Shown here in pieces: positions 3,961-54,745 of a stretch of DNA of 64,000 nt. Source of the DNA: a virus; the IMG/VR virus record IMGVR_UViG_3300036770_008686, positions 32,001 through 96,000 of that record; one strand, 5' to 3'. Each line of letters opens with the position of its first letter. Positions within the stretch are counted from its first letter, which is position 1. The notes under the pieces are model-generated. The model saw nothing but the letters and a program-made list of their open reading frames with translations. It searched no databases and was not told the DNA's origin. Both the position numbers and the translations under genes were made by a program.

Positions 3961-4020
3961 ACTATTCTCCAAATCCTTTTAGGCAAATGAAAACCAAGAA
4001 CAAAGAAGAAACGTACCCGG

Positions 4021-4293
4021 TCAATTTTTTAAATTAGTTGTTAAGCCAAGAGACATCAACTTGCCTCTTATTGTTTCTTGGCTTGTTTGATACTTTTTAC
4101 TCAAATCTTTTATTCCATATTTCTTATACTTTTTTAGAAAATTTAATATAGAGTCTTTCATCTCAAAGCTTTCGCTTCTTGTGCATACCTGAATTTTGAC
4201 CACATCTTTCAAAAGCTTTTTAAGCTCGTTAGAAGAAACTTCTTTTGAAAAACTTTTTCCGCCTTTTTCATACTCAACTTTGAGCTTGCTCAT
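4021..4293 (-). CDS. hypothetical protein, possible C-terminal HTH
   Basis: GIKDLSKKYQTSQETIRGKL resembles an HTH. Confidence 0.55.
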   Translation of the reverse strand: MSKLKVEYEKGGKSFSKEVSSNELKKLLKDVVKIQVCTRSESFEMKDSILNFLKKYKKYGIKDLSKKYQTSQETIRGKLMSLGLTTNLKN

Positions 4294-4450
4294 TTCTCTA
4301 CCCTTCTTGGTTTTAAAAAGAACGCTAGTCTTGTAACCGCCTACGAAAAGGACAACTAACAGTCATCCGACAAAATAATATACGCTATTTTGCCACAACA
4401 GTTCAAGTGTTTTTTTATTTTTTATTTTCATATATATTTTTAGAAACAAA

Positions 4451-4891
4451 ATGGAAAAAGAATTTTTAAATAAAGACCAAATCAAGCAGGAAATTAAACA
4501 AGAAATAAAAGAGTTTAAAAAATTTGCCTTAAAAGAAGATACCATGAAAATAGCGATTGCTGTCATAGTGGGTGGCTCAATACAAAGGTTTGCCAACTCT
4601 ATATCGAATGATATATTATCGCCTATAATAAACCTTTTAGTATACAAACCAAGTGGGTTTTGGAACAAATTAGCTGTCAGCATCAACAAAGATACTAAAA
4701 TAGAAATAGGCAACCTAATAAGTTCATTTTTAGAATTTACAATAATATCTTTAATAGTTTATGTAGTTTATATGAAGCTAATAAAAAATTTAATTAAAAA
4801 TGAAAATATTAATAATAAGACTTGCAATCAATGCTTTTCTTCTATTAACTACATGGCAAAAAGATGTCCATATTGTACAAGTAGACTGTAA
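4451..4891 (+). CDS. mscL: large-conductance mechanosensitive channel MscL-like protein with C-terminal Zn ribbon
   Basis: EFKKFA...IAIAVIVGG...DILSPII (TM1), IEIGNLISSFLEFTIISLIVY (TM2), CNQC...CPYCTS tail. Confidence 0.82.
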   Translation: MEKEFLNKDQIKQEIKQEIKEFKKFALKEDTMKIAIAVIVGGSIQRFANSISNDILSPIINLLVYKPSGFWNKLAVSINKDTKIEIGNLISSFLEFTIISLIVYVVYMKLIKNLIKNENINNKTCNQCFSSINYMAKRCPYCTSRL

Positions 4892-4917
4892 AAAATAATG
4901 TTGTATAATTGTTGTTG

Positions 4918-5079
4918 ATGAACAAAGAAAAATTAGATTTATTTAAAATAAAAGAAAAGTGTGTGATCTGCAAGGAATGTACGCAATACGATAAAAATAC
5001 CCACATAAATAAAAGATACTTCTATGTAGATTGCGTAGGTCAATTGTGCTCAAAATGTTACAAAAAATTTGTAGTTTGA
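4918..5079 (+). CDS. small Zn-finger protein (53 aa, below cutoff)
   Basis: Hand translation MNKEKLDLFKIKEKCVICKE...GQLCSKCY. Confidence 0.6.
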   Translation: MNKEKLDLFKIKEKCVICKECTQYDKNTHINKRYFYVDCVGQLCSKCYKKFVV

Positions 5080-5102
5080 TATAATTTATAATATATAACT
5101 TT

Positions 5103-5711
5103 ATGTATTTTAAAAACTGGTTGAAACTTTTTGAACAAAATATGTTCTTATTGAGAGATAAAACTCAAAAATTAGATTTGGGAAAAATTCTTGGGTTTAA
5201 AAAACCACTTGTAAAATTTAGCCAAGGAAGCATAGCAACAATATACGAACACCCCAACACTAAAGACTTATTAATAAAAGTAACTTCGCACAAAGACGAT
5301 ATCAAAAATATAATCACTGCACAAAAACTAAAGAGCGATAACGTTGTAAAGGTCTTTTCTTGGCAAACCGGAGAGTTGGTAAAACAAATTCCACAAATAA
5401 ATTCATACGCAATAATAGTCGAAAAAATATTAGGCAACTCTATGAGTTACACAACCAATGAATTTTTTGAATTAAGCTTAGATGGAAGATTTGAATTAGC
5501 AGCAGATTGGTTAGATGGAAACCTTCACAAAAGACAAATAGCCGTACTAGAACACAATCAAAAAAACAATCTAAAAGAGCACTCCAAGCTAAATAGTCTA
5601 TTTCGTGTATTAAACAAATTAGAGAGTCTCTACAGAATAGAACTCTCAGATTTTCAAGATAATATAATAGACTCAGGAGATAGATATGTTATTGTTGATA
5701 TGGGATTTTAA
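5103..5711 (+). CDS. protein-kinase-fold protein
   Basis: SQGSIATIY (P-loop-like), LLIKVT, SDFQDNII, VIVDMGF. Confidence 0.6.
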   Translation: MYFKNWLKLFEQNMFLLRDKTQKLDLGKILGFKKPLVKFSQGSIATIYEHPNTKDLLIKVTSHKDDIKNIITAQKLKSDNVVKVFSWQTGELVKQIPQINSYAIIVEKILGNSMSYTTNEFFELSLDGRFELAADWLDGNLHKRQIAVLEHNQKNNLKEHSKLNSLFRVLNKLESLYRIELSDFQDNIIDSGDRYVIVDMGF

Positions 5712-6032
5712 TTTAGATGTCTCAAATTCACATCTAGTCTCATGTTCATCATAAATATAATTTAATTTTCTATTTAAAGTTTTTTCTATTTTTTTAATCA
5801 ATTTTTTTGTTATTTTTTCTCCACAATAAAAATTATTTCCTACAACTCTGGCCCTTCTTTGCGAATAGGGCAGGTCGATAATATCGCTTCTGGTGATATC
5901 GTATTTTTTTGAAAAGATAAAAGAAACAATGTCTCGCCAATAATCTACGTGATTGACATCTTGAATGTCGTAGATAATGGTGTCATCATCTAAAATATAG
6001 ACCGGGAATCCACCATCTGGTTCTTCAGGCAT
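5673..6032 (-). CDS. hypothetical protein
   Basis: 119 aa ORF. Confidence 0.6.
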   Translation of the reverse strand: MPEEPDGGFPVYILDDDTIIYDIQDVNHVDYWRDIVSFIFSKKYDITRSDIIDLPYSQRRARVVGNNFYCGEKITKKLIKKIEKTLNRKLNYIYDEHETRCEFETSKLKSHINNNISIS

Positions 6033-6516
6033 TGTTTTTCACATAATTTTTAGGCTTGATATAATTTGAACCCATCATTCTTATGAAAGTTCTAGTTCCA
6101 GTTTTCTTGCAAACAACGCCCTTGTGGGGTTTTTTGCTATCGTATACAAAAAAATATTTTTCGGGTATTTCATAACAAGGCTTATCTTTGAGCAAAGATT
6201 CAAGTAGTTTATTTTGAAGATTTCTATCATCAGGAAAACTAGAAAAGTCTATTTTTTCATCACAAAAAATAGTTCTATTTGGACCTTCGCAATAAATGCA
6301 ATATTCATTATCTTTTTTATAATCGCCATCCAAGTGATATCTAACATCAACACAAGTTTTATCGCCAACTTTACAACTTTTTATCATCAAATCTACTAGG
6401 TAGCAACTAAAATTATTGTTAATTTTAGTCTTCATCTCTTCGACTATTTCTTTGTACTCATTAAACCTTTTAATGAATTTACAGTAATCAAAATCTTTTA
6501 CAAAAATTTCATTCAT
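6025..6516 (-). CDS. hypothetical protein
   Basis: 163 aa ORF coupled to its neighbours. Confidence 0.65.
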   Translation of the reverse strand: MNEIFVKDFDYCKFIKRFNEYKEIVEEMKTKINNNFSCYLVDLMIKSCKVGDKTCVDVRYHLDGDYKKDNEYCIYCEGPNRTIFCDEKIDFSSFPDDRNLQNKLLESLLKDKPCYEIPEKYFFVYDSKKPHKGVVCKKTGTRTFIRMMGSNYIKPKNYVKNNA

Positions 6517-7274
6517 TTTTCAAAAGAAGCTAAGTAGAGATTTAAAAAATGCTTCTCACGACCAGTTAAACCATCTTTTTCAAAAGCCTTCATTCTAAAA
6601 TAGTTTTCTAAGTCTTTTGGCAACTTGTCTTTAAGAACATGTTTTGCGTAATAGTATGCATATTCTATGTTTTCTTTGAAACAATTTTCTTGATTCTTAT
6701 CGAGCTTATTAAAAACAGAATAAATAAGTGTTAAACGAGGATCAACACCTTTAAATCCACTGGTTTTTCTAATCAAGAGCTCTTTTAAAGCATTCCAATC
6801 ATTTTCAAAGTCATCAGGAACAACATCATCTCCGAGATGGTCATTATAAAAATGAGATTTATAAGAAAGTTCTTGAAAATCTTCTCTATTTAAAATATGA
6901 TCTCCATAATCATACATTAATCCAACTTCTTGAACGACTCTACCAATCAATTCTAATTCATCGCTAGAGACGATAAGATTTTTTTCTAGAACAGGCTCAA
7001 AACCTTCTGAATCATCAGGGTCATTGTTTAATATTGTTCCTTTTTCGTCTACAAAATAGTTGTAAGTATAAGGCTCTATATTTATAGTGTTCACGCTGTT
7101 CAGGCGAATATCATTAAAGTAGTTATTATCATTATACTCACTAGAAACACTAAACTCTAATGAATTAAGATTTTTTATTTCTTTGAACAAGAGATATAAA
7201 AGCTTACGCTTGATGTTCTCTTTTTCTTTTTCAAGAAAATTAACTAAATTTAAACCATTTATAATTTCAATCAT
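6513..7274 (-). CDS. hypothetical phage protein with a YAKxVLxxxLP repeat unit
   Basis: 253 aa; YAYYYAKHVLKDKLP is shared in style with 8594..9439. Confidence 0.65.
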   Translation of the reverse strand: MIEIINGLNLVNFLEKEKENIKRKLLYLLFKEIKNLNSLEFSVSSEYNDNNYFNDIRLNSVNTINIEPYTYNYFVDEKGTILNNDPDDSEGFEPVLEKNLIVSSDELELIGRVVQEVGLMYDYGDHILNREDFQELSYKSHFYNDHLGDDVVPDDFENDWNALKELLIRKTSGFKGVDPRLTLIYSVFNKLDKNQENCFKENIEYAYYYAKHVLKDKLPKDLENYFRMKAFEKDGLTGREKHFLNLYLASFEK

Positions 7275-7276
7275 TT

Positions 7277-7834
7277 TTATTTAAGAAGTTTTTTAAGCTC
7301 TTTCCAGGTTCCTTGAACGGGCTTTTCTAAATTTTCCTTTTTTTCAATCTCTTCTTCTTTTTTAAATTCATTAAGATAGTCATCTAAGTTCTGTATTACT
7401 TCTTTTAAATCAGATCTAGGAAATCGAACAGAAACTAAAAACTTAAAATAATGTGGACCTTTGAAAGTTTCTATTATACAATCTTCATCAAAAGTACTTT
7501 CAACTCCATAATCAACTGGGTTAACACTATACTTCCAAAAAGTACTTTTTAAATTCTCTTCTTCAATGCTATCTTCGGGCACCCAGTGCTGTCTAATTCT
7601 GTTATACAAACAATCTATGTCTGGACTATACTTTGATACCACACTCAAGAATCTTTCGGCCTGATATGAGGATAAAAATTCAACCCAAACCCAACCTTTA
7701 GGAATATTATCTTCGCAAGAGTTGGTTGTTTTAATATTTAATTTTAATAACCTCTCCATAAGAGGGGCTATCCCCTCGTCTACTTCTAAAGAGACAAGAT
7801 CATGTTTTACCAAAACCTGTTTGTGCTCAGTCAT
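7277..7834 (-). CDS. hypothetical protein
   Basis: 185 aa ORF. Confidence 0.65.
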   Translation of the reverse strand: MTEHKQVLVKHDLVSLEVDEGIAPLMERLLKLNIKTTNSCEDNIPKGWVWVEFLSSYQAERFLSVVSKYSPDIDCLYNRIRQHWVPEDSIEEENLKSTFWKYSVNPVDYGVESTFDEDCIIETFKGPHYFKFLVSVRFPRSDLKEVIQNLDDYLNEFKKEEEIEKKENLEKPVQGTWKELKKLLK

Positions 7835-7882
7835 TTATTGGCTATTTTATAAGAGTTGGTCACGATGAGGCGTGTTCGTGTT

Positions 7883-8482: not shown

Positions 8483-8593
8483 ATAAGTGTATATAAGTAA
8501 ATGCCGTCAAATTTTTTCAAAAAACCTCATAAAGTTTTTAAAAAACAGATAGCACTGTTTCGAGTCCTGCTATCAGCGTGTTTTCATTTTTAT

Positions 8594-9439: not shown

Positions 9440-9621
9440 TTCACTTTCTCGTAATTTTTTCTTTTTTGTATATCCTTTAATATTTCGTTGTATGTCTCCA
9501 CAACAGTGTCACAACTTTGGGTTTTATCTTCTAGATTCTTTTTCCAAAAATAACTTTTTCCAATCCTACGCACAGAATATGCGTTTTCAAGACACAACTT
9601 TTCTAGTTGCCAGTACTTCAT
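9436..9621 (-). CDS. hypothetical protein
   Basis: 61 aa, overlapping start and stop. Confidence 0.55.
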   Translation of the reverse strand: MKYWQLEKLCLENAYSVRRIGKSYFWKKNLEDKTQSCDTVVETYNEILKDIQKRKNYEKVK

Positions 9622-9622
9622 G

Positions 9623-9982
9623 CTAGATAACTCCGGCTAACACCAAAGCACTCTTAACAGTATTTGTATCACAATCTTCGCAGTAGCCTTGAGAACAATC
9701 CGGTTCTACTTCTGTAGTATAGGTGCAATCTTTATTTGTGCAAATACCAGGGCAAACACTATCAATGCTTGCTTCTTCAAGCAAATCCATTACATCCAAA
9801 CCTTCAATATCAGCTAAGTCTTTTAATTTAGACATTTTACTTTCCTTTCTCTTTTCCATTTCTTCTAAAACTAAAACTTCGTAACTAGGCACATACTCTT
9901 TTTCGTGATAAGGTTTAATTTTTTGACAAGCATACCAAAACCTTTGAATTGTTTCGTCGTCGTACTTTGACAAATCTCCCAT
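9623..9982 (-). CDS. hypothetical Zn-ribbon protein (possible second in-frame start at MSKLKDL)
   Basis: CPGICTNKDC...VEPD...CEDC; an internal RBS precedes MSKLK. Confidence 0.6.
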   Translation of the reverse strand: MGDLSKYDDETIQRFWYACQKIKPYHEKEYVPSYEVLVLEEMEKRKESKMSKLKDLADIEGLDVMDLLEEASIDSVCPGICTNKDCTYTTEVEPDCSQGYCEDCDTNTVKSALVLAGVI

Positions 9983-10026
9983 AATGGGCTGCGTACCTGC
10001 TTCCTATTTGAAATTAGTTTAAATTT

Positions 10027-11177: not shown

Positions 11178-11203
11178 AAGCCTTTTTCCTTTTTAATTTA
11201 ATC

Positions 11204-11316: not shown

Positions 11317-11364
11317 CAAGGATGGGCCAACCAAATCTTGAACGTACTCGGATAGATTTTTTAA

Positions 11365-11858: not shown

Positions 11859-12503
11859 TTAGCCTAATTTTGTTGTTTCTAGTTCGTCCAAACAAATGAA
11901 ATCTGTTTTATTAATGGTCATTTTCCAAGATTTATGGTAATGACCAAAAATCCAAATTTTTGGTTGATGAATATTAAATAATTCATTTAAAGCCCAGCTT
12001 GTATTGTTTTCATATATCCTGCTTCCAGGCGGCAGTAAGTATGGTATAAGCTCTATTGGGCAATCATGAGTTAAAACGATATCCGGCTTTATTGAGCGAT
12101 AAAGTTCTCTAGCTTTCATAAATTCTTCTATATTTAACTGTTCTTTTTCCCACCAATCTATTCCTATGGTACGATACATTCTATCTATACTATAGGCTCC
12201 TCTATAGTGAAAAAAATCTATTCCGTGGAAATTTACTGTGTGTCCGAAGTCGCCTAAATAATTTGGAACTTTTTCAACAATATCATAATTATCATGATTT
12301 CCTCCTATGAAAACGTGTTTCGTAGGATCAACATTTTTTAGAGTTTCGTAATCAAACCCAAAATCCCCCAATTGGACAGAGTTTGGATTCTTATTTTTTT
12401 CTCTTATTATTTCGTGATATCTACGATATTTGCCGTGAACATCACCTATGATTGTAACACTCATCGAAAAATTATACAATGTTGGTTGGAAAAAATCAAG
12501 CAA
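11859..12503 (-). CDS. calcineurin-like metallophosphoesterase
   Basis: GDVHG, QLGDFG, GGNHDNY, LTHDCP and FGHYH motifs; real start probably MSVTII. Confidence 0.9.
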   Translation of the reverse strand: MLDFFQPTLYNFSMSVTIIGDVHGKYRRYHEIIREKNKNPNSVQLGDFGFDYETLKNVDPTKHVFIGGNHDNYDIVEKVPNYLGDFGHTVNFHGIDFFHYRGAYSIDRMYRTIGIDWWEKEQLNIEEFMKARELYRSIKPDIVLTHDCPIELIPYLLPPGSRIYENNTSWALNELFNIHQPKIWIFGHYHKSWKMTINKTDFICLDELETTKLG

Positions 12504-14339: not shown

Positions 14340-14368
14340 CCTATAACGTACCAGATCAGTATTGTAAA
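14340..14368 (-). promoter_or_regulatory. sigma70-type promoter TTTACA-17-TATAGG with GGTACG in the spacer
   Basis: -35 at 14363-14368, -10 at 14340-14345, CGTACC(+) at 14347-14352. Confidence 0.65.
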
Positions 14369-20938: not shown

Positions 20939-21997
20939 TCAACCAAGCTTCATGCTGCCTTTGATTAACTCATCATTTTTTTCAAGCCACTTGCCAATAT
21001 TTTCGCTTTCGTAAGCGATGTCTCTAATTTTGGCGGCTTTACTATCATTCATGATTCTCTTTATAAAAAGAGCAGCAGGCTCAGGACTAATATCAATCAA
21101 AACATTTGCACAATTCTCGAAAATCTTCTCAGGAGACTTGTGTTCAATTAAATGGCTGGCCAAAGCACTCGCCACTGCATAGCTAACACTAATCTTCTTT
21201 TTATCCTCTTTCCATTTACTCTTACCAGAAACAAGCTTATCCATATCAGGAAGGCTTTTACAAACATCAAGATAAGCCATAAATTCACCCGCACTACCCC
21301 CGACACAAGCCCTAATATCGGCAAGATTAGTAAACTTGTTTTTAAGCCGGTCGCTAACATAACTCCAACTCCTAGGATTTGCACTAGGAGTATACTCGTC
21401 AACTACAGGCTGAATGAGAAGTTCTCTTCTAAAGCTGATAAACCCGATAACATCAGGGTGAACCCCAGACTTAATCGCCCAATCAATCCAATTCTCGACG
21501 TTAGGAACATAATCATAGACAGCAAATCTAGCAATAAGGGCACTACTAAGAGGGTAAACATGAGCCCTATCTTCACTTCGATTGCCAGCAGCAACAATAT
21601 ACCAGCCATCACCTAAGTGGTGATTTCCAACTTTTCTGTCCAGAACAAGTTGCAAAGCAGGGTTCTGCACACTAGGCGGTGCAGTATTAATTTCATCAAG
21701 AAAAATAATGCCCTTGCCGTCATAAGGAAGAAACTCAGGCCTCACCCAACTAACGGTTGGATTGCCCTTCTCGTCTTTTTGAATAACAGGTAGACCTCTA
21801 AGGTCAATGCTATCCAGGCTGTTAAGTCTCAAATCAATACAAGTTTCATCATTCTCAATGCTCTGCCAAACTTGCTGGCTTTTGCCTACTCCCGGGGCTC
21901 CAAAGATAAGCATAGGCCTATCGCAAACCCTGTTCCTCTTAACAACATCAACAAGACTCTCAGAAATAATATTTCTGTTTGTGAGATCACTAGCCAT
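20939..21997 (-). CDS. MoxR-like AAA+ ATPase (DUF2201-associated)
   Basis: GAPGVGKS, IDLRGLP, FLDEIN, AAGNR, PRSW. Confidence 0.9.
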   Translation of the reverse strand: MASDLTNRNIISESLVDVVKRNRVCDRPMLIFGAPGVGKSQQVWQSIENDETCIDLRLNSLDSIDLRGLPVIQKDEKGNPTVSWVRPEFLPYDGKGIIFLDEINTAPPSVQNPALQLVLDRKVGNHHLGDGWYIVAAGNRSEDRAHVYPLSSALIARFAVYDYVPNVENWIDWAIKSGVHPDVIGFISFRRELLIQPVVDEYTPSANPRSWSYVSDRLKNKFTNLADIRACVGGSAGEFMAYLDVCKSLPDMDKLVSGKSKWKEDKKKISVSYAVASALASHLIEHKSPEKIFENCANVLIDISPEPAALFIKRIMNDSKAAKIRDIAYESENIGKWLEKNDELIKGSMKLG

Positions 21998-22066
21998 CAG
22001 TTATAAATCCTTATTTTTGTGAAGAACGAAACCACGGAGCTTCCGTACCAGGGTTTACTTTTTAAA

Positions 22067-23430: not shown

Positions 23431-24504
23431 CTAATCTTCTTCTTTTTTATATTTTAATTGGCTTTTTTGACAATCACTATCTTGTATGTCTTGTCTCATA
23501 CCAAGATATGTTGGTTGATATAAGTTGCCTGATTGCTTGTAAGCATACAAGTACCTAATTTCAACAATCGCTCCCACCTCAGGAACGTCATAATTAACTG
23601 GTATTGTCACCTTTCCACAATCTATAAGTTTTCTTCCATTCAACAAACCTAGTTTGACACTTCTTTTTCCTTCATTTATTTCGGTAACAAAACAACTACA
23701 AGTTGCATAAAATTTATACTTAACATAACTACCACCGCTTGATGGCCTACCAATATAATACTTGGCAGATTTTTCTTTGAAAACAACACCTTCTTCATTT
23801 TTTTCAAATGATTTTTTATAAAATTCTTCTTTTTCTTGCTTTGTGTAGTAACTATCGGTCAAGCAAACAGACTCAGAGAAAGACTTGAACTTGTCTAGAT
23901 ATTTTAATCTTTCAACTAGAGTAAAGTTTTCTAATTTTTCACCATCATATTCTAGAATGTCGAACACATAATATTTTTCACCAACAAGCTCGCCGTCAAG
24001 TAAAAAATCTTTGTCATGTTTTTCGGAGTCATTCCAAATCACAGTTGGGATGTTACAATTAAGACCTCTCCTGTTATAGGCTCTTAATGTTTTATCTTTT
24101 TTATGTAACATAAATCTCACACCATCAAATTTGGGCTGGGCTAACCAGTTTTCATCATTTATGTAATCTTGTAATTGGCTTTCTTTTATTGGATTCAAAA
24201 GAACACACTTAGACTCAGAAATAGTTTCGGGAAGATTTTCAGGTACGTGTATTGCCTGAGATTGATCCAGGGGTATCTTTTGATAACCTTTTCCAGTTTT
24301 TTCCTTCAACAAAGACTCATATATCTTTTTAGCTTGGTCCAAACTAACTGCATTATTGGTTTTAGTGCCACTTTTTAAAGCACCTCCTCTTCTTCCGTAG
24401 CTAAAATTAACAACAAAACCGCCATTCTTTTCTTCTATTGCAGCATTATACAGTTTGTCGCTAACGCCTTCTTTGTAGTACAAACTAGTAGATTCAATTG
24501 TCAT
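23431..24504 (-). CDS. ATP-dependent DNA ligase with N-terminal WGR domain
   Basis: SDKLY...YGRRG (WGR); QPKFDG, DGEL, FDILE, EGVVFK, VKYK; C-terminal OB fold. Confidence 0.88.
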   Translation of the reverse strand: MTIESTSLYYKEGVSDKLYNAAIEEKNGGFVVNFSYGRRGGALKSGTKTNNAVSLDQAKKIYESLLKEKTGKGYQKIPLDQSQAIHVPENLPETISESKCVLLNPIKESQLQDYINDENWLAQPKFDGVRFMLHKKDKTLRAYNRRGLNCNIPTVIWNDSEKHDKDFLLDGELVGEKYYVFDILEYDGEKLENFTLVERLKYLDKFKSFSESVCLTDSYYTKQEKEEFYKKSFEKNEEGVVFKEKSAKYYIGRPSSGGSYVKYKFYATCSCFVTEINEGKRSVKLGLLNGRKLIDCGKVTIPVNYDVPEVGAIVEIRYLYAYKQSGNLYQPTYLGMRQDIQDSDCQKSQLKYKKEED

Positions 24505-26433: not shown

Positions 26434-26450
26434 CCTTGAAAAAATTAAAA

Positions 26451-26803
26451 TGGAGGCGAGGGGAGTCGAACCCCTGTGTTGTGATAATTTTAATATGACC
26501 TCTACAAGTTTATTTTGTTCATAAATTTTGAGAAAGACTAAAGAACAAACAACATTCATCTTTCCGTACCAACAAGTCTTAGTCTAGGACCCGTTGGCTA
26601 TCCTAGAAGCAGAAGGATTTTACGACGATTTTTCGGACGCTACCTTCAATCGCTTCCTAAAATCGTTGCTGCTATTTATTAAGCAGCAAGAGCTAACTGA
26701 TTTGTGCCAGTTAAAGCATTAATCTGGTTTTAAAGTAGCCTCCAGATCAACTACTACTTGCTAGTCACAGTAAATTTTATCCAATCGATACCTTTACGCC
26801 CCC
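26451..26803 (-). ncRNA. ssrA: tmRNA, tag peptide (A)ALTGTNQLALAA; CCA not encoded
   Basis: 5' GGGGGCG pairs with 3' CGCCTCC-A including G3:U70; T-arm AGGGG TTCGACT CCCCT; tag ORF at 26679-26717 with its stop in a ttgctgc/gcagcaa hairpin; 353 nt. Confidence 0.93.
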
Positions 26804-27507: not shown

Positions 27508-27617
27508 TGTATATTTCCTTATTTGAAAAATAGTAAAATCTATAGAACTTGCGTCCGATACGGGAGAGCCGTACCGGACGATGGATTGTAGCGACCTTTT
27601 ATTTTTTGTCAAATAGT

Positions 27618-34035: not shown

Positions 34036-34114
34036 TTTTTCTCCTTATAAGGTGGTTTTCAGAAAAACGTACCGAGTTTTCGAGGAAAATTAGTTTTAAA
34101 ACGTATATAATTTT

Positions 34115-34333
34115 ATGATAAGTTTTAAAGAATATGTTAAAAAAGTTTTCGGTGAAGATTTAGTTGGAATTTATCCTCCTTTGTATGGTGGCGTAGGAAA
34201 CTACCCCAAAAGCTACTTTACTACATACACACCTTACATTGATGCATCAAGAAAAGTAAAAACAAATCCTCCAAATAAGAAAAAAAGAAAGAAGAAAAAA
34301 AAGTCAAGAAGATCAAAAAGAAAGTCAACATAA
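34115..34333 (+). CDS. small basic protein with capsid-targeting-like N-terminus
   Basis: MISFKEYV...; K/R-rich tail; TATATAA 4 nt upstream. Confidence 0.6.
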   Translation: MISFKEYVKKVFGEDLVGIYPPLYGGVGNYPKSYFTTYTPYIDASRKVKTNPPNKKKRKKKKKSRRSKRKST

Positions 34334-35245
34334 AGGATCATACAAAGGACAATTTTTATTTAAGTATTTTAAAGCTTCGAGTTTTATCTGTCTAACTCTT
34401 TCTCTTGTAATATGCAACTCACTTCCTATCTCTTTTAGAGTTTTGCCGACACCTTCACTATCTATTCCGTAGTAGTCTTTAAGAACTTTTATTTTAACAT
34501 CAGGTCGATGTATTTTTTTATTTTCTTTAAGTTTTTCCAACAAACTATGAAGGAAAGCTTTATTATATTTGTCGTTAATAAATGAGAAATCACTTCCTTT
34601 TTCATCTACTGCGACGATTTTATTCTCAGACAACTTTTCTTGTTGCCGCTTACTATTGATGTAATCTCTATGAAGATTAGATTGCAAAACCCTGGTGCAA
34701 TAAGTTGAGAACTTGTATCCCATCCTATAATCAAAAAGATCAACAGCCTTTAGCACATGACAATAGCCATTGGAAAAAAATTCGTCTCTTTCAAAAGTAT
34801 CGCTAGAGTGGTATCTGTGAACTCTCTTAAATATCAATCTTAAATTAGACTTAATAATGATGTTTCTTGTTTCTTGGGCTGTTCTTATTAGTCTTTCTAT
34901 TTCTTTTAAAGATTTTTCTCCAAGTCTTTCAATATTAACAGGTTTACTATATTTTGGGCCGTCTTTAGACTCTTCAAAACCCAAAGTCAACTTTGTAATT
35001 CTGTATTTTAAATAATTTAATTTTCTAAACAAATGTTCTTCTTGCTCTCTAGTTAATAGAGGAGAGCAGTTAAACAAATTGTTTTCTTTTGTTTTCTTGT
35101 AACAAAGATTTATGTCTTCTAAAATTTTGTTTCTACTTGAAGATTCAAAGACTTTTTCAAAATAAAATCTCTTTGGCAAAGAATCTAATATTTTTTGAAT
35201 TCTAATTTTTTTGTCCATTTTAGTCAAGGTTTTTTGAGTATTCAA
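34325..35245 (-). CDS. RNA polymerase sigma-70 family factor
   Basis: LLTREQEEHLFRK (1.2), SNLRLI, AVDLFDYRMGYKFSTY (2.3), TLKEIG...TRERVRQI (4.2). Confidence 0.9.
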   Translation of the reverse strand: MNTQKTLTKMDKKIRIQKILDSLPKRFYFEKVFESSSRNKILEDINLCYKKTKENNLFNCSPLLTREQEEHLFRKLNYLKYRITKLTLGFEESKDGPKYSKPVNIERLGEKSLKEIERLIRTAQETRNIIIKSNLRLIFKRVHRYHSSDTFERDEFFSNGYCHVLKAVDLFDYRMGYKFSTYCTRVLQSNLHRDYINSKRQQEKLSENKIVAVDEKGSDFSFINDKYNKAFLHSLLEKLKENKKIHRPDVKIKVLKDYYGIDSEGVGKTLKEIGSELHITRERVRQIKLEALKYLNKNCPLYDPLC

Positions 35246-36309: not shown

Positions 36310-36450
36310 AAAGATTATTTGTAATTATTAGATCAAAAATCAAAATTTGAAACAAGCCAAGATCGTAACAAAAGGAAAAGCTTGAGTCAATACCTTTTCA
36401 GAACTTTTTTTACAACCCAAATTTCTCATCTTATCCAAATTAACAAGAAC

Positions 36451-37334: not shown

Positions 37335-37406
37335 ATAATACTACCCAAATAGAAAATACACGAATACAAGGATGGCACGTACCCACCCACTCGCTTGAAA
37401 TACAAT

Positions 37407-41524: not shown

Positions 41525-41971
41525 TCAGACATTGTTTAAATGATTGATCACAGCCGCAGCTATTTGAATATTTATTCCAATATTCTCATCAGTTTGAAAA
41601 AAAGACCCTTCAATGTTAGCATCATCAAAATCGTCTATTATTGCAAACTTTTGCACACTAGGATTATTTGCAAGCCACGCCATTATCTCTTCGCTTCTCT
41701 TGACCCAACGGCCATCCCAGCTTGCAGATCTTTCTAAAACAGGAGTGCAGTCATGAATTTCAAGTCTATGTTGGGCAAGTGATTGAACAACAAGATTTTT
41801 ATCTTTTTCTTGTATTCTCCAGGTGCTAGAGAGAACAATCCTTGCATCGGTTTCTTCGACTATTTTTGCAACAAGAGAAACAAGAGATTGATCAATAAAA
41901 TCGAACCCAAATTTTTTAATAAGCTTAGGAGTGTTAAGAACTCCATCGACATCAAGAAAAATAATTTTCAT
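41525..41971 (-). CDS. HAD-superfamily protein (Swiss-army-knife RNA-repair-like HAD domain)
   Basis: IFLDVDGVLN, IVLSSTWR, EI..WL, IIDD. Confidence 0.85.
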   Translation of the reverse strand: MKIIFLDVDGVLNTPKLIKKFGFDFIDQSLVSLVAKIVEETDARIVLSSTWRIQEKDKNLVVQSLAQHRLEIHDCTPVLERSASWDGRWVKRSEEIMAWLANNPSVQKFAIIDDFDDANIEGSFFQTDENIGINIQIAAAVINHLNNV

Positions 41972-42015
41972 TTATGCTTCCTCGCTCTGATCCTGTCGAG
42001 AGATACGTACCGACC

Positions 42016-43753: not shown

Positions 43754-43844
43754 ATGAATACCCAACCCCTAAAGGGATTGGGTTTCCTGCTTCCGAGATC
43801 ATTTAAAATTTTAAAAGGACGACCAACTGTGGATTCGTACCCAA
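43754..43844 (-). mobile_element. orphan IS200/IS605-type right end (TnpB omega-RNA-like remnant)
   Basis: Minus strand GAAGCAGGAAA-CCCAATCCC TTTA GGGGTTGGG-TATTCAT resembles the GAAGCAGGAAG-hairpin-TAGTTCAC end pattern (from recall); no tnpA or tnpB adjacent. Confidence 0.5.
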
Positions 43845-45578: not shown

Positions 45579-46448
45579 TTAGATTTCTATTCCTTCAATC
45601 CCCTCTTCGGTGCTTCCGTCGTAGTAAATAAACTTTCCACCTACAATGTTTTTTAATTTTTCAAGAGTATATTGTAACAATTCTTTGTTGTTTTTAGTGT
45701 TCACAGATCTACCTAAACCATCATCAATGCCAGCATTATACAAATGGTTTACAATATTTTTAGCCCTAAAAATAGCAGACCTAAAGAAACCGGGAAGAAT
45801 AGCTGTCTGCATTCTATACAAGTCCATAGGTTTGTCAGATTCTTTGATCTTTAGAAGGGTGAACAAATTTTTAAATTGACCAACCCCAGTATCCGTAGAA
45901 GTGCTTGAAGCATAAACCTCTACAAGATAACCTTTTTTTATTAAACCTTCTACTTTTTTTATAGCTTTGCTAATATAGTCAAGAAGTTCTTTTGAAGATG
46001 TACTAGAAAGATATCCAACATTAACCAAAACTCTTACTGCCCTATCTTGACTTTTTACTCTAGAAACTTTTCTATAGGGAAAAGGATCGGAGGATAAGTA
46101 TGAATCAATGCAAATTTCTCCATCATATTCATTTTTAAGCCTTCTTCTTTTAACGCTCGGAAGCTTTGAATTAAAAGAAATTTTACAAGAGTGCTGATTA
46201 TAAGATTTTTGAAGGCTACTATTTAATCTTCCTTTTATAAGCATATCCCAGGTGTCTTTACCTGATATTCCCGAACCAAACGCCCATTCACTATCCGTTA
46301 TTTGATTCAGATTGCCACAATAACTTTCAGGGCTAACTAACTCAATGTTTTCATAACTTCTACTCATAACTTCGGTTGGGTTTTTAAACAAGACCAAAGT
46401 AGAATCGTGGTTTATTTTTTTGACAAGCATATTAAGCGGCTTCTTCAA
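45579..46448 (-). CDS. degenerate VWA-like (CobT-type) MoxR partner
   Basis: GEICIDSYL, LVNVGYLSS, LKIKESDKPMD, G.DDGLG; overlaps the AAA stop. Confidence 0.6.
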   Translation of the reverse strand: MKKPLNMLVKKINHDSTLVLFKNPTEVMSRSYENIELVSPESYCGNLNQITDSEWAFGSGISGKDTWDMLIKGRLNSSLQKSYNQHSCKISFNSKLPSVKRRRLKNEYDGEICIDSYLSSDPFPYRKVSRVKSQDRAVRVLVNVGYLSSTSSKELLDYISKAIKKVEGLIKKGYLVEVYASSTSTDTGVGQFKNLFTLLKIKESDKPMDLYRMQTAILPGFFRSAIFRAKNIVNHLYNAGIDDGLGRSVNTKNNKELLQYTLEKLKNIVGGKFIYYDGSTEEGIEGIEI

Positions 46449-47394
46449 AATCGTTTAAACACTCTTTAAACTTAAGCTTTTCTTCATCGGTCCAGTCCAA
46501 AGTTAATATATCAAATATTTCTTTTTCGTTAAAAGAACCAGACATTTTATAAGCACTTAAAATCGTTCTAGTACTTATACTTCTTTCAACTTTGCAATTT
46601 TTCCGAATATATTGCAGTTTAGAAGTAAGAGAAATGCTATCAGTAATTTCAAGTTCTAAATTTTCATCATAATCAATAAAAGTTTTACTGAGAGCAAATC
46701 TATCCAAAAATGCTTTGTCTAGAATTTCTCTTCCACTGTACTCGAAACTTCCGTGTCCCCAAGTGTTTGAAGCAACTACAAGATGAAAATTTTCATGTCT
46801 TTTTGCTACAGGGTTTTCTTTCCTATTAGGGATGGACATTTTACCATTAGCTATAGCAGAATTAATAACGAGCAAAACATTAGAATCTGCTGCGTCTATT
46901 TCATCTAAAAGAAAAACGCCACCATTTTCATATAAATCAACAAAGCTGGTAGGAATATAGGTGCCGTCTGCAACCATTCTACCTGTTAAGTGAGATTCAC
47001 TCATTCCAGCAGTACAACTAATATGAGAAAAACTTAAATCTAGTGCCTTGGAAAGTTGTTCGCTAAGATAGGTTTTTCCAGATCCAGTTGGGCCAGACAA
47101 CATTAGTTGTTTATGTATGCTCAAAAGGGTAAGAGCCTTATCAAAATCTCTATGTTGTCTACCTGTGAGGTTTACCTCTTTTTTATTCGGAAGAACAACA
47201 ATATAAGGCTGTAGGACTTTGGCCGCTTCTCTTATTTGCTTTTGAAAGTCTTCTTTGAGTTCAGGGATAAACTCTGGTAGATGTTTTTTTGTAGCCTTTT
47301 TAATCATCCCAACTATGGGAAGTTTAATATTAAGACTTCCTTGAACCACATCTTTGGTAATCTTTTCTTTTTTTCTATCTAAAGTTGTTTGCAT
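46432..47394 (-). CDS. MoxR-type AAA+ ATPase (CobS/CbbQ-like)
   Basis: GPTGSGKT, FLLDEID, ASNTWG, AFLDRF, STR. Confidence 0.9.
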   Translation of the reverse strand: MQTTLDRKKEKITKDVVQGSLNIKLPIVGMIKKATKKHLPEFIPELKEDFQKQIREAAKVLQPYIVVLPNKKEVNLTGRQHRDFDKALTLLSIHKQLMLSGPTGSGKTYLSEQLSKALDLSFSHISCTAGMSESHLTGRMVADGTYIPTSFVDLYENGGVFLLDEIDAADSNVLLVINSAIANGKMSIPNRKENPVAKRHENFHLVVASNTWGHGSFEYSGREILDKAFLDRFALSKTFIDYDENLELEITDSISLTSKLQYIRKNCKVERSISTRTILSAYKMSGSFNEKEIFDILTLDWTDEEKLKFKECLNDFEEAA

Positions 47395-47483
47395 TTTTAT
47401 ATTGATGTTATTAGAAATTATTCGTCACAATAGACTGTCGTACCGGTATTAATAATTTAATTACTTTTTTAATAAAATTAGAC

Positions 47484-48572: not shown

Positions 48573-48614
48573 TTTAAATCAAAAATTATTTAAGAAAAAA
48601 AGCTTAAATTGCCA

Positions 48615-50464: not shown

Positions 50465-50754
50465 TTATCTAAGCCTTTGTACTTAATATACAATAGTATT
50501 TCGTTTTTGAAATCCTCTTCTTTAAAGAGTCTTGCAAAATCTCTCAATCCAAAAAGTAATTTATACTTTTCTTGTATTTTATTAAAATCTTTATTTATTT
50601 GTTCAACAAGCTTTTCGACTATATCTAATTGCTCAAAAATATCTTCAAAATCTTGATTGCCCGAAACCTCTTTTCTAAGACTAGATTTCAAGTACTGGAC
50701 GAGTTCTGCTTTATAGGCGTTTGAGTAATCAGAGTTAGAATTTAAAGCATACAT
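50461..50754 (-). CDS. hypothetical protein between rIIA and the rIIB-like gene
   Basis: 97 aa, coupled on both sides. Confidence 0.65.
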   Translation of the reverse strand: MYALNSNSDYSNAYKAELVQYLKSSLRKEVSGNQDFEDIFEQLDIVEKLVEQINKDFNKIQEKYKLLFGLRDFARLFKEEDFKNEILLYIKYKGLDK

Positions 50755-52961
50755 TATCGGTTCGACCTACTCTTACTGTTTATGTAGAAAATAATTTCTT
50801 TGATCATGGTATCATCTCTTCTATTGCCATAATTAAATGAATAGCTATAGCTGTGAAATTGGGAAAGATGCTTAATTAAAGGATACTTTTCCAGTATGCT
50901 TTGCTTAAGTTGCTCTATTTTATCTTTCTGCAATTTAGCTTTGCTAAAAGCTTCATACAAGTCTAATATTCTTTCGGGAATATCAACATGGTTATTTGCG
51001 TTATTTTGTTTCTGAGGAATTGCTGAGAAATATTTTTTAATATTTTCGCAAACAATTTCTCCAACATATTTTCTTAAAACCTCTAAGGAGCCATCTTCAG
51101 TATTGTTGAAGTGATTTCTGATTACATCGTCCGAAATCTGTATATGCTGAGGAAAGTTCTCGATTAGGGTGCAATATTCTATGGTGTTGTCCAGCAAACA
51201 AAGAACTTCATATTCTTTTTTACTACACTTCACAACCTCCATATTTTTGCCCTGACTGTATATGAACTTAAGATTTTGATAAAAATCAGAGTTATCAAGT
51301 TCATACATGGGATCGCTACTAAAGGGAACTATTACATAGGTCTTTTCTGATTCAACAAGTTCTTCTAAACTAATATCAACCTTAGAATCAACTTCTACTT
51401 TGTTAGAGTATCTTTGACCATTAGGAATAAGCTTCCTCAAAGTAACACTGCCGGCTTCTTTTTTGGGTTTAGCCGGAGTTTTTGCAACCTCTACTTCAGA
51501 TATATACCTTGCTTTAACAAAGTTAACAAAAGGAACGGGATTTGCAATCCTATTAATATAGTAAACGGTTCCAGGATATGACCCATTTACACTATCGGGT
51601 TGTCTTGCAAGAAGAATGCTTCTAATTTTTTCTTTAAAAGCAAGCTCTGAAATAAAATTGGCTGGCAAATCGTTAATTACAAAGAATATGTCATTTATGT
51701 CTCTATTGCTAATGTTGATAATTGCATTGTCTGTTCTTTTCAGAACATGCCTAGACTTTTGCTTGTCAAGAAAAAATTGACTAACTTCATTTATGGAGGG
51801 AGAAGTAAGTTGTCCGTTCTTAACACTATACTTTATACCATCTTTAGTGAAAGTACATTCTTCATTGTTTCTTGCAAAATTTTCATCTTTGAAACCGGGC
51901 ACTTGATTAAGATGAAAAATTTGTTTGCACTTATTGATCTTTTCAACATATTCAGTTATAGAAGTAGGCTCTGCTTTGAAAAAGTTGTTTACGTGATCTG
52001 CCAAAAGAGAATTTACATCTTTACAAAGCTGATTTACTTTGGCTTTGCTACTATCCTTATCAGATATACTCTCTCTAGTAGCACTAACTTCCAGAACACC
52101 ATTATCTACTTCAATAAAATTGATAGAATTAGGAGCAGAAGTAGAGTTTCTAAGTTTCTCAACTTCTGGGCATTCTCTTAAAAATTTGTTGATACTATAA
52201 GGAATTTTGTCAATTAAAACAAAAATTTCTGCATTGTGTGCATCGAACAGTCTCTTAACAAGATCTGTTTTGTTCAGCAAAAGCCAATTCTTTTCTTTTG
52301 CTATAATATTTGTTTCTAAGTTAGTGTAGTCCTTTGGAATCTCAATTTCGGTAATACCCTTGAGGTCGGGCTTTACATCCCAAAAGAATGTACAACGATA
52401 AACTGCATTTACAAAGAATTCAATATCGGACTCTTTAACTGGTATTTGTATTTCTACGCCATTTTTCTCAGACGTATTTTCCTCGTTTATAAGCTCAAGA
52501 GTGCCATTGCTATTCTTACCTGTATGGGCGGCATAGGTTCGAGCGACACCATCATGGTAGCTAACAACAACAAAGCTGTCTGTGTATGCCCAAGCACTTT
52601 TTGCACCAATACCAAACCCACCAGTTTGGATGTTATCTTTTCTTTTTGTGCTACTTCCATAGTTCACAAAAACATCTTTTACCCTATCAGGGCTTAATCC
52701 AACCCCATAGTCTCTAATCTTAAGTGTGCTTTCCAACTTAGTAGGCAATGTGACACAAAGAGGGGTGTTTTCTCTTCCAGCCTCTCTGTGACTATCTCTG
52801 CCGTTGCACAAGTATTCTTGTGTAAGGGTCCTAATTGGATTAGAGTAAAGCCTATTTCTTAGAATGTCAATAATGGTGCTAACATCACCAATTCCGAAAT
52901 CCATGCTTTGCATGTCAGAGTTGTTTGTATCAACATTACTATGTTCGGTATTTATTTTCAC
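50754..52961 (-). CDS. rIIA: RIIA-like protein (GHKL/Hsp90-type ATPase N-terminus)
   Basis: LYSNPIR...QEYLCNGRDSH, IRDYGVGLS, STK...TGGFGIGAKS..AYTDSF.V.S...G. Confidence 0.85.
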   Translation of the reverse strand: MKINTEHSNVDTNNSDMQSMDFGIGDVSTIIDILRNRLYSNPIRTLTQEYLCNGRDSHREAGRENTPLCVTLPTKLESTLKIRDYGVGLSPDRVKDVFVNYGSSTKRKDNIQTGGFGIGAKSAWAYTDSFVVVSYHDGVARTYAAHTGKNSNGTLELINEENTSEKNGVEIQIPVKESDIEFFVNAVYRCTFFWDVKPDLKGITEIEIPKDYTNLETNIIAKEKNWLLLNKTDLVKRLFDAHNAEIFVLIDKIPYSINKFLRECPEVEKLRNSTSAPNSINFIEVDNGVLEVSATRESISDKDSSKAKVNQLCKDVNSLLADHVNNFFKAEPTSITEYVEKINKCKQIFHLNQVPGFKDENFARNNEECTFTKDGIKYSVKNGQLTSPSINEVSQFFLDKQKSRHVLKRTDNAIINISNRDINDIFFVINDLPANFISELAFKEKIRSILLARQPDSVNGSYPGTVYYINRIANPVPFVNFVKARYISEVEVAKTPAKPKKEAGSVTLRKLIPNGQRYSNKVEVDSKVDISLEELVESEKTYVIVPFSSDPMYELDNSDFYQNLKFIYSQGKNMEVVKCSKKEYEVLCLLDNTIEYCTLIENFPQHIQISDDVIRNHFNNTEDGSLEVLRKYVGEIVCENIKKYFSAIPQKQNNANNHVDIPERILDLYEAFSKAKLQKDKIEQLKQSILEKYPLIKHLSQFHSYSYSFNYGNRRDDTMIKEIIFYINSKSRSNR

Positions 52962-53149
52962 TTTTATATCCTTTGTTTTATTGTTTGCGAATCAAATCTT
53001 TCACGTACCGAGTGAGAGGATTTTATTTTTTTTAAATTTCCTCAAACACCATTATAGCGAATCCTCGAGTTTTTTGTTTTCAAATAAAAACTTGATTTTA
53101 TTTTTTTGTAAATTATAATAAGAAGGGGCTAAGAAATAAAAAAACAAAA

Positions 53150-53575
53150 ATGAAAAAACTAAACAACAAAGAACTAGAGAGCTTTGCAAAAGAAATAAGA
53201 AAAGTAATATTCAAAAACTTAAAAGAAGAAGAAGATGAAAAACAAATCAAAAATTTAGAATTAAAAAGAGTTCACAATATAATACTTGAAAAATTGAAAA
53301 AAGTAAAATTATTTAATAAAAACATGGAAGAAATATTAACAGTAAATGAGTCTGTGCTTATAATCAAAAATTATGCCGAACGTGCAGATGAAAACACTTG
53401 GTTGATAAACGACTCAGAAAAAACTTGTGCCAAAATTGCACAAGATATTTTCTCAAGAATTATCAATAACACTTTATCTAAATTAAGCAGCGAAGGACTA
53501 TTAGAATGTCACTATGATTCAGAAGAAAATGACTTTATATTTAATGTTAAAGAAACCAAAGAAACTACTGACTAA
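53150..53575 (+). CDS. hypothetical protein
   Basis: 141 aa ORF. Confidence 0.65.
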   Translation: MKKLNNKELESFAKEIRKVIFKNLKEEEDEKQIKNLELKRVHNIILEKLKKVKLFNKNMEEILTVNESVLIIKNYAERADENTWLINDSEKTCAKIAQDIFSRIINNTLSKLSSEGLLECHYDSEENDFIFNVKETKETTD

Positions 53576-54575
53576 TAATTTCCATACATTCTTCTGTCTC
53601 GTTTTCAAATAACTTTTCAAAAAAGTTTTCAATAGAATCCGGGTCTAACAAACTAATTTTCATAACATACTCTGGTATGGTTTCTTTGGTTTCTTCTTTA
53701 TAATGCTTGTAAAAAGAAAGAAGTCTTCTCCAAACTTCTGAACTAATTTGTATGTATCTTGGTTCATCCACTCTTTTATCACTAAACTGATAAACTAATT
53801 CGAGAGTCTCGGCTGGAATGTTCTGCAGCCCATGCAAGCAAATGCACTCCATTCCACCTTTAACCATTTCTTGGCATAAAACAACAAAAGTTTTGGCGTT
53901 GCATACGACTTTTGGGTTTTCGCTTCCCTCTTCATATTCTACTTTGGAGCTACCAATGGCAATGTTTCCAGAAAAATCTTCATCAGAGACAAATCTTGAA
54001 TAATCTATCTTCCAGTAAGAACTAACAGTTCCCACGCTAAGAGAATCATAAAGAGGAATAATGTCGGGAATTATCTTTTGTAGTTCGTCCTTGACCAAAT
54101 GATGCAAGGTATAAAAAGCATGTATGCTAGCACCCTGTATAATGCAGTTTAGCAATATTCTCTTGTTAATTAACTTTTGAGTCTCTTTGTCTAGATTGCT
54201 ATAGGCAACCTTTTCCTTGTTTTCGGTTTTGTTAAGATCTACATCATCTCCATTTAGATCAACATCTAAAATGTCTTCTGGTATTCCAAAAGACTCATAG
54301 ACTGCTTTTTTGGCCAGTTTCTCAAGTTCTTCTTTGTGGCCGAACTCTTTTTCAATTATATTGTGAAAAACTTGGCTTTGATAAGAAATATCAGTATTAA
54401 TTCCAAGCTTTTCAGATCTTTCTTTTACGAAATCGTATGAATTTTTACTTAAATTGTTTCCAAAATAAACAAGATTACGATTTTTCTTAAACACATGAAA
54501 GGGAGAATCGCCTTTACGGAGATTCAACCAAAAGTTTCTAATACCAGGATTAACATGCAGACTATTTTCGTACAT
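53565..54575 (-). CDS. conserved large-phage hypothetical protein
   Basis: 336 aa; KRILLNCIIQGA...LCQEMVKG...DEPRYI. Confidence 0.7.
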   Translation of the reverse strand: MYENSLHVNPGIRNFWLNLRKGDSPFHVFKKNRNLVYFGNNLSKNSYDFVKERSEKLGINTDISYQSQVFHNIIEKEFGHKEELEKLAKKAVYESFGIPEDILDVDLNGDDVDLNKTENKEKVAYSNLDKETQKLINKRILLNCIIQGASIHAFYTLHHLVKDELQKIIPDIIPLYDSLSVGTVSSYWKIDYSRFVSDEDFSGNIAIGSSKVEYEEGSENPKVVCNAKTFVVLCQEMVKGGMECICLHGLQNIPAETLELVYQFSDKRVDEPRYIQISSEVWRRLLSFYKHYKEETKETIPEYVMKISLLDPDSIENFFEKLFENETEECMEIISQ

Positions 54576-54684
54576 TTTTAGGCTCAGGCATCACAGAAGG
54601 TTTTGGACTCTTAAATGGATCTTGTTTAGGAGGACTCTTTTCAGGAGTTTTTACAGGCGTTTTTACTGGCATTGTTGTGGGCAT
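54562..54684 (-). CDS. 40-aa Pro/Lys-rich peptide, possibly the frameshifted N-terminus of 53565..54575
   Basis: MPTTMPVKTPVKTPEKSPPKQDPFKSPKPSVMPEPK; GGAGAA RBS. Confidence 0.55.
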   Translation of the reverse strand: MPTTMPVKTPVKTPEKSPPKQDPFKSPKPSVMPEPKNVRK

Positions 54685-54745
54685 TTTATTTTCTCCGATG
54701 GACCAAAAACGTACCGAGTTTATTTTTTTATTTTTAGTCAAATAA

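Follow-up and report, generated by a model that had tools for sequence, protein, structure and literature searches.

A strand-specific GGTACG element as a candidate promoter core of a phage sigma regulon in uncultured large phages

In the sigma cascade of phage SPO1 (gp28, gp33/34) and at the late promoters of T4 (gp55, TATAAATA), transcription is switched in time from host-type to phage-specific promoters; those of SPO1 are bipartite, and the T4 middle promoters served by MotA/AsiA combine a MotA box at −30 with a sigma70 −10 element. The closest documented counterpart of the element described here is, by analogy, found in the phiEco32 group. In phiEco32, promoters of the middle and late classes, which are read by the sigma factor gp36, carry the sequence tAATGTAtA, and the late promoters of phage 7-11, which are read by gp47, carry GTAAtg-N16-aCTA (PMC8948821). 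The gp36 promoters contain a single conserved element with transcription starts 6–8 bp downstream, and phages related to phiEco32 with diverged sigmas use other consensi (PMC8948821). Here, we describe the hexamer GGTACG in a 64,000-nucleotide stretch of phage DNA (the window), which corresponds to bases 32001–96000 of the 135,789-bp IMG/VR virus record IMGVR_UViG_3300036770_008686 (G000), where the hexamer recurs on the coding strand upstream of genes. The element is probably a promoter of some kind, and comparison with related phages inclines us slightly towards regarding it as the core of the promoters in a phage sigma regulon. GGTACG was found in the full-text phage-promoter literature in primer sequences only, and as a promoter word it therefore appears undescribed there.

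As in phiEco32 and 7-11, the GGTACG phages encode a sigma70-family factor, here the predicted reader, which would act with the host core polymerase; the element is short, highly conserved and strand-specific, and stands before a defined gene class; transcription is predicted to start a few bp downstream; and the consensi appear to differ among relatives with diverged sigmas. Unlike the consensi of phiEco32 and 7-11, that of the GGTACG phages contains G+C (RGTACG) within a genome of 31% G+C, and their sigma factor has a conventional region 4.2, whereas gp36 is without region 4. The GGTACG clade and its host, in contrast to these phages, are uncultured, and the element is known from sequence alone.

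Distribution of GGTACG and its counterparts in related phages

G000 has a G+C content of 31.7%, is estimated to be 68% complete, and carries nearly all of its genes on the minus strand. It codes for rIIA, an rIIB-like protein, ATP-dependent ligases, AAA ATPases, a sigma70-family protein, tRNAs, a transfer-messenger RNA (tmRNA), and a baseplate module. A comparison with 50,697 deposited phage genomes yielded no close relative; the 595-kb uncultured phage LR756511.1 provides the best structural match, with the closest baseplate hit at 46%.

In the window, GGTACG is found on the minus (coding) strand 13 times and on the plus strand twice, a total of 15 matches versus 3.55 ± 1.71 in shuffles, and none of 100 shuffles reached 15. 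Over the whole 135.8-kb record, there are 26 minus copies and 2 plus copies, and 19 of the 26 minus copies lie in intergenic DNA, which makes up 7.9% of the record on a crude map of open reading frames (ORFs). The hexamer ranks first of all 4096 for intergenic enrichment (binomial p = 4e-16), followed by its own overlaps GTACGT and CGGTAC, and it is also the top hexamer when the regions are defined as upstream-oriented intergenic DNA (p = 3e-17). The original prediction, which was made from the window alone, had considered such a concentration unlikely by chance, and this is borne out by the shuffles, the strand count and the hexamer rank, as is the enrichment by strand and by genic or intergenic class that it expected genome-wide. 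All 12 copies that it had listed (CGTACC on the plus strand, GGTACG on the minus strand) were recovered, with their ACTCGGTACGT extension in three copies and the 16-mer common to the copies at 34068 and 54710; the list had missed a 13th minus copy at 26565–26570 and the plus-strand copies at 12168 and 24242. One-mismatch variants of GGTACG are unenriched (16 minus versus 10 plus), with the exception of the variant already noticed at 11343, an AGTACG at 11343–11348 whose flanks are those of the GGTACG sites. The distance from motif to start codon is 9–83 nt, mostly 25–62 nt, in agreement with the range first given, and the stop codon of the upstream ORF often lies just 3–43 nt ahead of the motif.

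Related IMG/VR records were retrieved by way of the ATPase and an alignment of sigma homologues, yielding G001 (181 kb), G004 (188 kb) and G003 (381 kb), whose sigmas are 52%, 42% and 47% identical to that of G000, respectively. In an unbiased test of each genome, every hexamer in upstream-oriented intergenic DNA was compared with the whole genome. The top hexamer of G001 is again GGTACG (2e-16), and the top words of G004 form the family CCTCCCGGTACGCT (1e-14 to 2e-16). The top word of G003 differs, being ATTGTACCCTA (GTACCC, 1e-19; 93 plus versus 27 minus), and about 75 copies of it stand ahead of small genes at 271–323 kb; TGTACCC thus takes in G003 the place that GGTACG has in G000. Counted on the coding and the other strand, GGTACG occurs 49 and 3 times in G001, 46 and 5 times in G004, and, unbiased, 20 and 23 times in G003, and the reversed word used as a control gave 17/12, 22/23 and 55/44 in the same order. 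The hexamer test revealed nothing comparable in G008, which has a more distant sigma (31%), and LR756511.1, whose sigma is only remotely related, shows neither a GGTACG bias nor a comparable upstream word.

Shorter records extend this distribution. Three G000-like sites, all on the coding strand, occur in a 14.5-kb metagenome fragment whose sigma is 64% identical, and two fragments with 47%-identical sigmas each carry a G004-like site approximately 50–60 nt upstream of the sigma gene. The extended words of the G001 and G004 types were found in IMG/VR mostly in those two records and in probable chance singletons, and one 125-kb record has three G004-type matches on the same strand.

The position of the motif is conserved before orthologous genes. 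Among G000 genes with a G001 orthologue, the motif is also present at 5 of 8 orthologues of motif-bearing genes versus 3 of 72 orthologues of motif-less genes (Fisher p = 1.2e-4), and the corresponding figures for G000 and G004 are 4 of 8 versus 6 of 55 (p = 0.017); the rest of the flanking intergenic sequence is unconserved between orthologous sites. The genes downstream of the motif are non-structural, encoding rIIA, a MoxR-like ATPase, an AAA_5 ATPase, a HAD_SAK_2 phosphatase, a phosphoesterase, probably a ligase, tRNA-Ile, and many small ORFs without known function, and the 17-kb baseplate block contains no copy of GGTACG.

Geometry of the sites

The alignment of 21 G000 sites reveals an A/T-rich tract upstream, often with TAATTTAAAAA approximately 13 nt ahead of the motif, a T-C directly before GGTACG and a T directly after it, 25 nt of A-poor DNA downstream, and a second small conserved feature, T-G(-T), 9 nt past the hexamer. 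When the sites of G000, G001, G003 and G004 are aligned on the T of TAC as offset 0, all four genomes have G at −1, TAC, and then G (C in G003), followed by T at +13 (69–71%) and G at +14 (63–79%), and nearly all G004 and G003 sites have T at +5. Immediately upstream, a block of 10–14 nt is strongly conserved among the sites of one genome but differs from genome to genome: A/T-rich plus TC in G000, CCTTTTyGG in G001, AAGTTTCCTCCC in G004, and AAAtAATT (AAATAATT) in G003. The first base of the hexamer may also be A in G001 (RGTACG), with an unchanged flank. The conserved span is about 27 nt long, is interrupted by a stretch without conservation, and holds a pyrimidine–purine step at a fixed distance.

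This arrangement resembles a −10 element with its start site. With the T of TAC at −12, TAC(G/C)NT would form a TAnnnT hexamer whose T and A (−12, −11) are invariant, a G occupies −13, and the conserved pyrimidine–purine step (T-G) falls 8 nt past the hexamer, at the expected start site. TAC-G-N-T would thus stand in for the −10 hexamer, the G at −13 and the R at −14 may act like an extended −10, and transcription would start 13–14 nt downstream of the T of TAC, at the conserved T-G. The gene for tRNA-Ile(tat) (genome 3384–3458), the only tRNA with the motif upstream, has its mature 5′ end at offset 13, and an ATG without a Shine-Dalgarno sequence is located at offset 13–14 at window position 9982 (minus strand), at G001 52735, and at G004 49588; these three ATGs are candidate starts of leaderless mRNAs, as judged from their position. 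Several tRNAs in G001, G003 and G004 have a TATAAT-like hexamer only 8–9 nt before the point where the mature tRNA begins, which hints at 5′ leaders that are very short or lacking altogether, and in such A/T-rich DNA these hexamers lend weak support to the start geometry.

Upstream of the hexamer, the listing of G004 sites shows TTGACA exactly 16 nt before TACGCT at four sites, and an automated count over 23 intergenic G004 sites gave 2 at spacer 16, where 0.09 was expected per spacer position. A bipartite sigma70 form, with a TTGACA-like sequence 16–18 nt upstream, is otherwise absent from the sites of the four genomes, being restricted to this minority of G004 sites at 16 nt. The downstream T-G was also considered as the beginning of a −35 TTGACA; this was rejected because the start codons, 35–60 nt past the motif, are too close to accommodate a −10 element and a leader, and because offsets 35–40 are unconserved. 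A sigma54-type promoter (TGGCACG-N4-TTGC) resembles the element superficially, GGTACG corresponding to GGCACG and being followed by TTG, but the spacing from GGTACG to TTG is 8 nt in all four genomes versus a strict 4 nt, and the phage factor belongs to the sigma70 family.

Some sites sit right behind clear intrinsic terminators, and a new promoter would be needed there. As a general feature of the sites, an upstream terminator was rejected: a detector of hairpin plus T-run, which is strict and misses some terminators visible by eye, found one just upstream at 1/20, 1/32, 0/23 and 4/41 sites in the four genomes, similar to controls.

A further word, TATATA, is the second most enriched upstream intergenic hexamer in all five genomes tested and usually lies 15–30 nt ahead of start codons; it is a candidate for a separate promoter class of late, T4-like TATAAATA type. 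Several promoter classes per genome (here TTGACA/TATAAT-like, GGTACG, and TATATA near start codons) would be shared with SPO1 and the T4 late system, from which these phages differ in that the sequences are unrelated and the classes are assigned from gene content only, and no −35 element is seen in G000, unlike in SPO1.

Candidate readers of the element

The proposed reader is the sigma70-family factor encoded at 34325..35245 on the minus strand of the window, a protein of 306 amino acids (aa) with Pfam Sigma70_r2 and Sigma70_r4 domains and a PHROG sigma factor assignment. Orthologues are present in G001, G003 and G004, and the sigma is conserved in all motif-bearing genomes. Region 2.3/2.4 of the phage sigma reads KFSTYCTRVLQSNLHRD, where primary sigmas have KFSTYATWWIRQAITRS. 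Alignment to solved primary sigmas reveals that the segment FDYRxGYKFSTY is kept, that the ATWWIRQAITRS following it in primary sigmas is changed to CTRVLQSNLHRD, and that the WW dyad and the equivalents of Q437/T440 are replaced; the change removes the tryptophan pair together with residues that in sigma70 touch the −10 element at its upstream edge. The altered region 2.3/2.4 is common to the whole clade, and the −35-reading helix TRERVRQI (region 4.2) is kept. G003 has a second, paralogous sigma gene (197511–198389, plus strand), in which one tryptophan of the WW pair is retained (KFSTYATWVLKKN).

The operon that contains the sigma gene has a consensus match to a sigma70-like promoter upstream (TTGACT-N17-TACGAT, window 36362..36390, minus strand), with TACGAT as its −10 and a T-G 13–14 nt after the T of that hexamer; sigma70 consensus matches in this region are not above shuffles. 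The orthologous gene of G003 lies just downstream of TTGTCA-N16-TATAAT, which suggests early expression by the host enzyme. In the mechanism that we propose, the sigma would be made first from host-type promoters, and host core RNA polymerase carrying the phage sigma would then read the element and turn on a middle-type, non-structural gene set. This regulon would comprise rIIA, two ATPases, the HAD phosphatase, probably the ligase, the phosphoesterase, tRNA-Ile, and many small ORFs. The comparative evidence leans towards the first of the three readings in the original prediction, a −10 element for the phage sigma, as the element is conserved and co-oriented in relatives with an orthologous sigma and shows a TAnnnT-like geometry and a pyrimidine–purine step; an operator fits poorly, and an mRNA processing site gains no support from flanking stems or from Rfam families.

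Several observations weigh against this assignment. The genomes are 68–79% complete, and the missing parts could encode another polymerase or factor. With 8 nt between it and the hexamer, the predicted start is at the upper limit of the customary spacing, the −7 T that would be expected reaches only 33% in G000 and 48% in G001, no −35 element is found at the sites of G000, G001 or G003, and at one G003 site a Shine-Dalgarno sequence follows directly after the motif, upstream of the predicted start. Canonical terminators upstream of the sites are rare, which makes co-transcription of gene arrays possible. No residue of sigma region 2.4 covaries with the motif type, and L096, a record with a sigma of similar identity (45%), has no motif in 20 kb.

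A promoter read by something other than the phage sigma is unlikely in our estimate, although several features would suit it. The reader could be an activator that binds the lineage-specific upstream block and recruits the host sigma to a weak TACGNT −10, as in T4 MotA/AsiA, or a phage RNA polymerase that has gone unrecognised and whose gene lies outside the recovered sequence. The upstream blocks indeed differ by lineage, as expected if a DNA-binding protein co-evolves with them; the three bases most important to host sigma70 are preserved in TACGCT, which in G004 has a TTGACA partner at 16 nt; small helix-turn-helix (HTH) genes lie within the regulon; and in G004 positions −14 to +5 form an uninterrupted unit of 20 nt, like the promoters of single-subunit polymerases. 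The genomes being incomplete, such a reader could also have escaped the assemblies. The likeness to T4 middle promoters extends to the gene class (rIIA and other non-structural genes), to tandem host-type and phage-type signals at some genes, and to a conserved box just upstream of a TAnnnT hexamer. The invariant part here, however, is the hexamer and not a −30 box, and a phage sigma is present. Neither the MotA C-terminal domain (PF09158) nor AsiA (PF09010) was found in the four partial genomes, in a search that had no positive-control match. No T7-like (PF00940) or multisubunit (PF00623) polymerase was detected in these genomes either, the PF00623 controls being positive. The C-G that is invariant within the hexamer points to a specialised sigma that reads the element directly.

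G003 also contains a 4404-aa ORF (348024–361238, plus strand; L090/L091) without Pfam or PHROG match, for which no homologue was found in G000, G001, G004 or G008. It was considered as an N4-like polymerase and rejected, as its sole match, a 12-bit hit to PF00940, is to a low-complexity stretch.

Instead of a phage-sigma promoter, the element could act in RNA, as an endoribonuclease cleavage site or a translational regulator site placed before each cistron of polycistronic transcripts, like the T4 RegB sites or the T7 RNase III sites. The location between close-packed, co-directional genes, the scarcity of canonical upstream terminators, the Shine-Dalgarno sequence directly after the motif at the G003 site, and a sigma70-like promoter at the 27570 site that would begin the RNA just before the motif are all compatible with such a signal. 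The original prediction had pointed to hairpins around three copies, and these small stems exist, but they are not in excess (2 observed in G000 versus 2.8 ± 1.5 with re-paired flanks). Stems of at least 4 bp occur at 2/20, 4/32, 1/23 and 4/41 sites in the four genomes, none above the re-paired-flank controls, and no Rfam family was found at the motif sites; a hairpin as part of the motif, be it in the manner of the N4 virion-polymerase promoters or as a stem-loop for RNA processing, was therefore rejected. The span of about 27 nt with its gap and pyrimidine–purine step fits a polymerase footprint better, the putative RNA 5′ ends 8–9 nt past the hexamer are typical of initiation and not of cleavage, and the intrinsic terminators directly before some sites and the TTGACA at promoter spacing in G004 also argue for initiation. 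We thus consider an RNA-level signal distinctly improbable.

A related and equally doubtful scenario involves no sigma70-family holoenzyme at all, the RNA 5′ ends being set by an undescribed polymerase or by a sequence-specific RNA-cutting system. Transcripts would then begin at the mature 5′ end of the tRNA and at the AUG of leaderless mRNAs, and the recognition word, GTAC with a flank particular to each lineage, would co-evolve across this clade of large phages from fresh water, all of them uncultured.

It is very improbable that the element lacks promoter function and serves instead as an operator, bound by a repressor or some other protein such as the HTH paralogues, or as a site of GTAC methylation or restriction: small HTH genes are present and the palindrome GTAC is mildly under-represented in G000 (observed/expected 0.73), but the element is asymmetric, points with few exceptions in the direction of the gene downstream and keeps a constant distance to the T-G that follows, and only 28 of the 136 GTAC sites of G000 are in GGTACG context, most lacking the flank, so that GTAC as such is not the signal. 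Some other 4-bp palindromes are nearly absent, with observed/expected ratios of 0.11 for GCGC and 0.0 for CGCG in G000, 0.0 for GCGC in G001, 0.07 for GGCC in G004, and 0.0 for both ACGT and CGCG in G008; this depletion, which differs by phage, looks like restriction-site avoidance.

Individual sites in the window and their wider meaning

The sites in the window are given below by window coordinates and lie on the minus strand unless otherwise stated. Four of them precede genes of recognisable function. The copy at 53004..53009 lies ahead of rIIA (50754–52961), with T-G at offsets 13–14 and a TATAAT approximately 45 nt farther upstream, and rIIA of G001 has the motif too. The copy at 47439..47444, also with T-G at offsets 13–14, lies ahead of the AAA_5 ATPase (46432–47394), and that at 22044..22049, with the same T-G, ahead of the MoxR-like ATPase (20939–21997), whose orthologues in G004 and G003 likewise have their own phage's motif upstream. 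The HAD_SAK_2 phosphatase gene (41525–41971) is preceded by the copy at 42006..42011, which follows the stop codon of the upstream ORF by 4 nt.

Two copies flank the sigma gene. The copy at 37378..37383 stands at the head of the gene array running down to it, and represents a GGGTG-GGTACG-TGCC subtype with T-G at offsets 13–14 and a weak hairpin in the consensus scan, and the copy at 34068..34073 lies downstream of the sigma gene, ahead of a 72-aa ORF. The latter shares the extended form AAACTCGGTACGTTTT with the copy at 54710..54715, which has a terminator-like hairpin approximately 30 nt upstream and is followed by a Pro/Lys-rich ORF of 40 aa and a gene of 336 aa; in G001, the motif has been kept at the orthologous unit (site 7493). 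The 40-aa ORF (54562–54684, MPTTMPVKTPVKTP...) lies between the motif and the 336-aa gene, and is found in the same place in G001.

The remaining intergenic copies precede smaller or unassigned ORFs. At 4012..4017, ahead of a 52-aa ORF (ATG 3960), the motif follows the upstream ORF stop by 3 nt and has the A/T-rich box TAATTTAAAAAA upstream and T-G at offsets 13–14 (4002–4001). The copy at 9992..9997, ahead of a 119-aa ORF, belongs to the candidate leaderless mRNAs, as no Shine-Dalgarno sequence separates the T of TAC from its ATG, which is found at 9982, offset 13. The copy at 14347..14352, with T-G at offsets 13–14 and an intrinsic terminator approximately 60 nt upstream, precedes a 92-aa ORF, which the original prediction had called an HTH gene. 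A 228-aa ORF follows the copy at 27570..27575, where a sigma70-like promoter, TTGACA-N16-TACAAT as read by eye, ends 9 nt ahead of the motif. At 43836..43841, ahead of a 72-aa ORF, the T-G is displaced by one position (offsets 14–15). The AGTACG variant at 11343..11348, 165 nt ahead of a 182-aa ORF, has A/T-rich DNA upstream and T-G at offsets 13–14; AGTACG is a regular variant in G001, with the flank of the G001 GGTACG sites.

Three further copies lie within genes. That at 26565..26570 is inside the tmRNA gene, lacks both the A/T-rich flank and the T-G at offsets 13–14, and is probably incidental, and those at 12168..12173 and 24242..24247, both on the plus strand, are inside minus-strand ORFs and incidental. 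The tmRNA itself (26448–26803, minus strand; Rfam 104 bits) has the tag peptide GTNQLALAA and a TATAAATA word 4 nt ahead of its 5′ end, and a tmRNA is also present in G004, with the tag GTVNYAMAA. At approximately 55000–64000, the window contains a plus-strand gene block that includes a family-2 glycosyltransferase, with a lower G+C content (26–28%), the opposite skew, and no copy of GGTACG.

In G001 (L007), the region 131.7–142.4 kb is an array of approximately 26 small genes, several of them paralogous (N-terminus MARVDA...), in which a long perfect hairpin (TTATACCCGG...CCGGGTATAA) and, after it, the motif stand behind each gene. A gene of this MARVDA family is cut by the start of the G000 contig (genome 1–137), whose assembly probably broke in such an array.

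The phages described here are uncultured, range from 135 kb to more than 380 kb, and have most of their genes without known function. For such genomes, the GGTACG word would provide a first transcription map, as the motif separates approximately two dozen (G000) to approximately 80 (G003) non-structural genes from the structural genes, including arrays of small genes with a probable role in host takeover. It would also pair a divergent sigma with a candidate DNA target. Within the sigma70 family, a −10-like hexamer that contains an invariant C-G would be out of the ordinary, and the conserved GTAC core with its changing flanks may offer a natural series in which to follow the evolution of sigma specificity.

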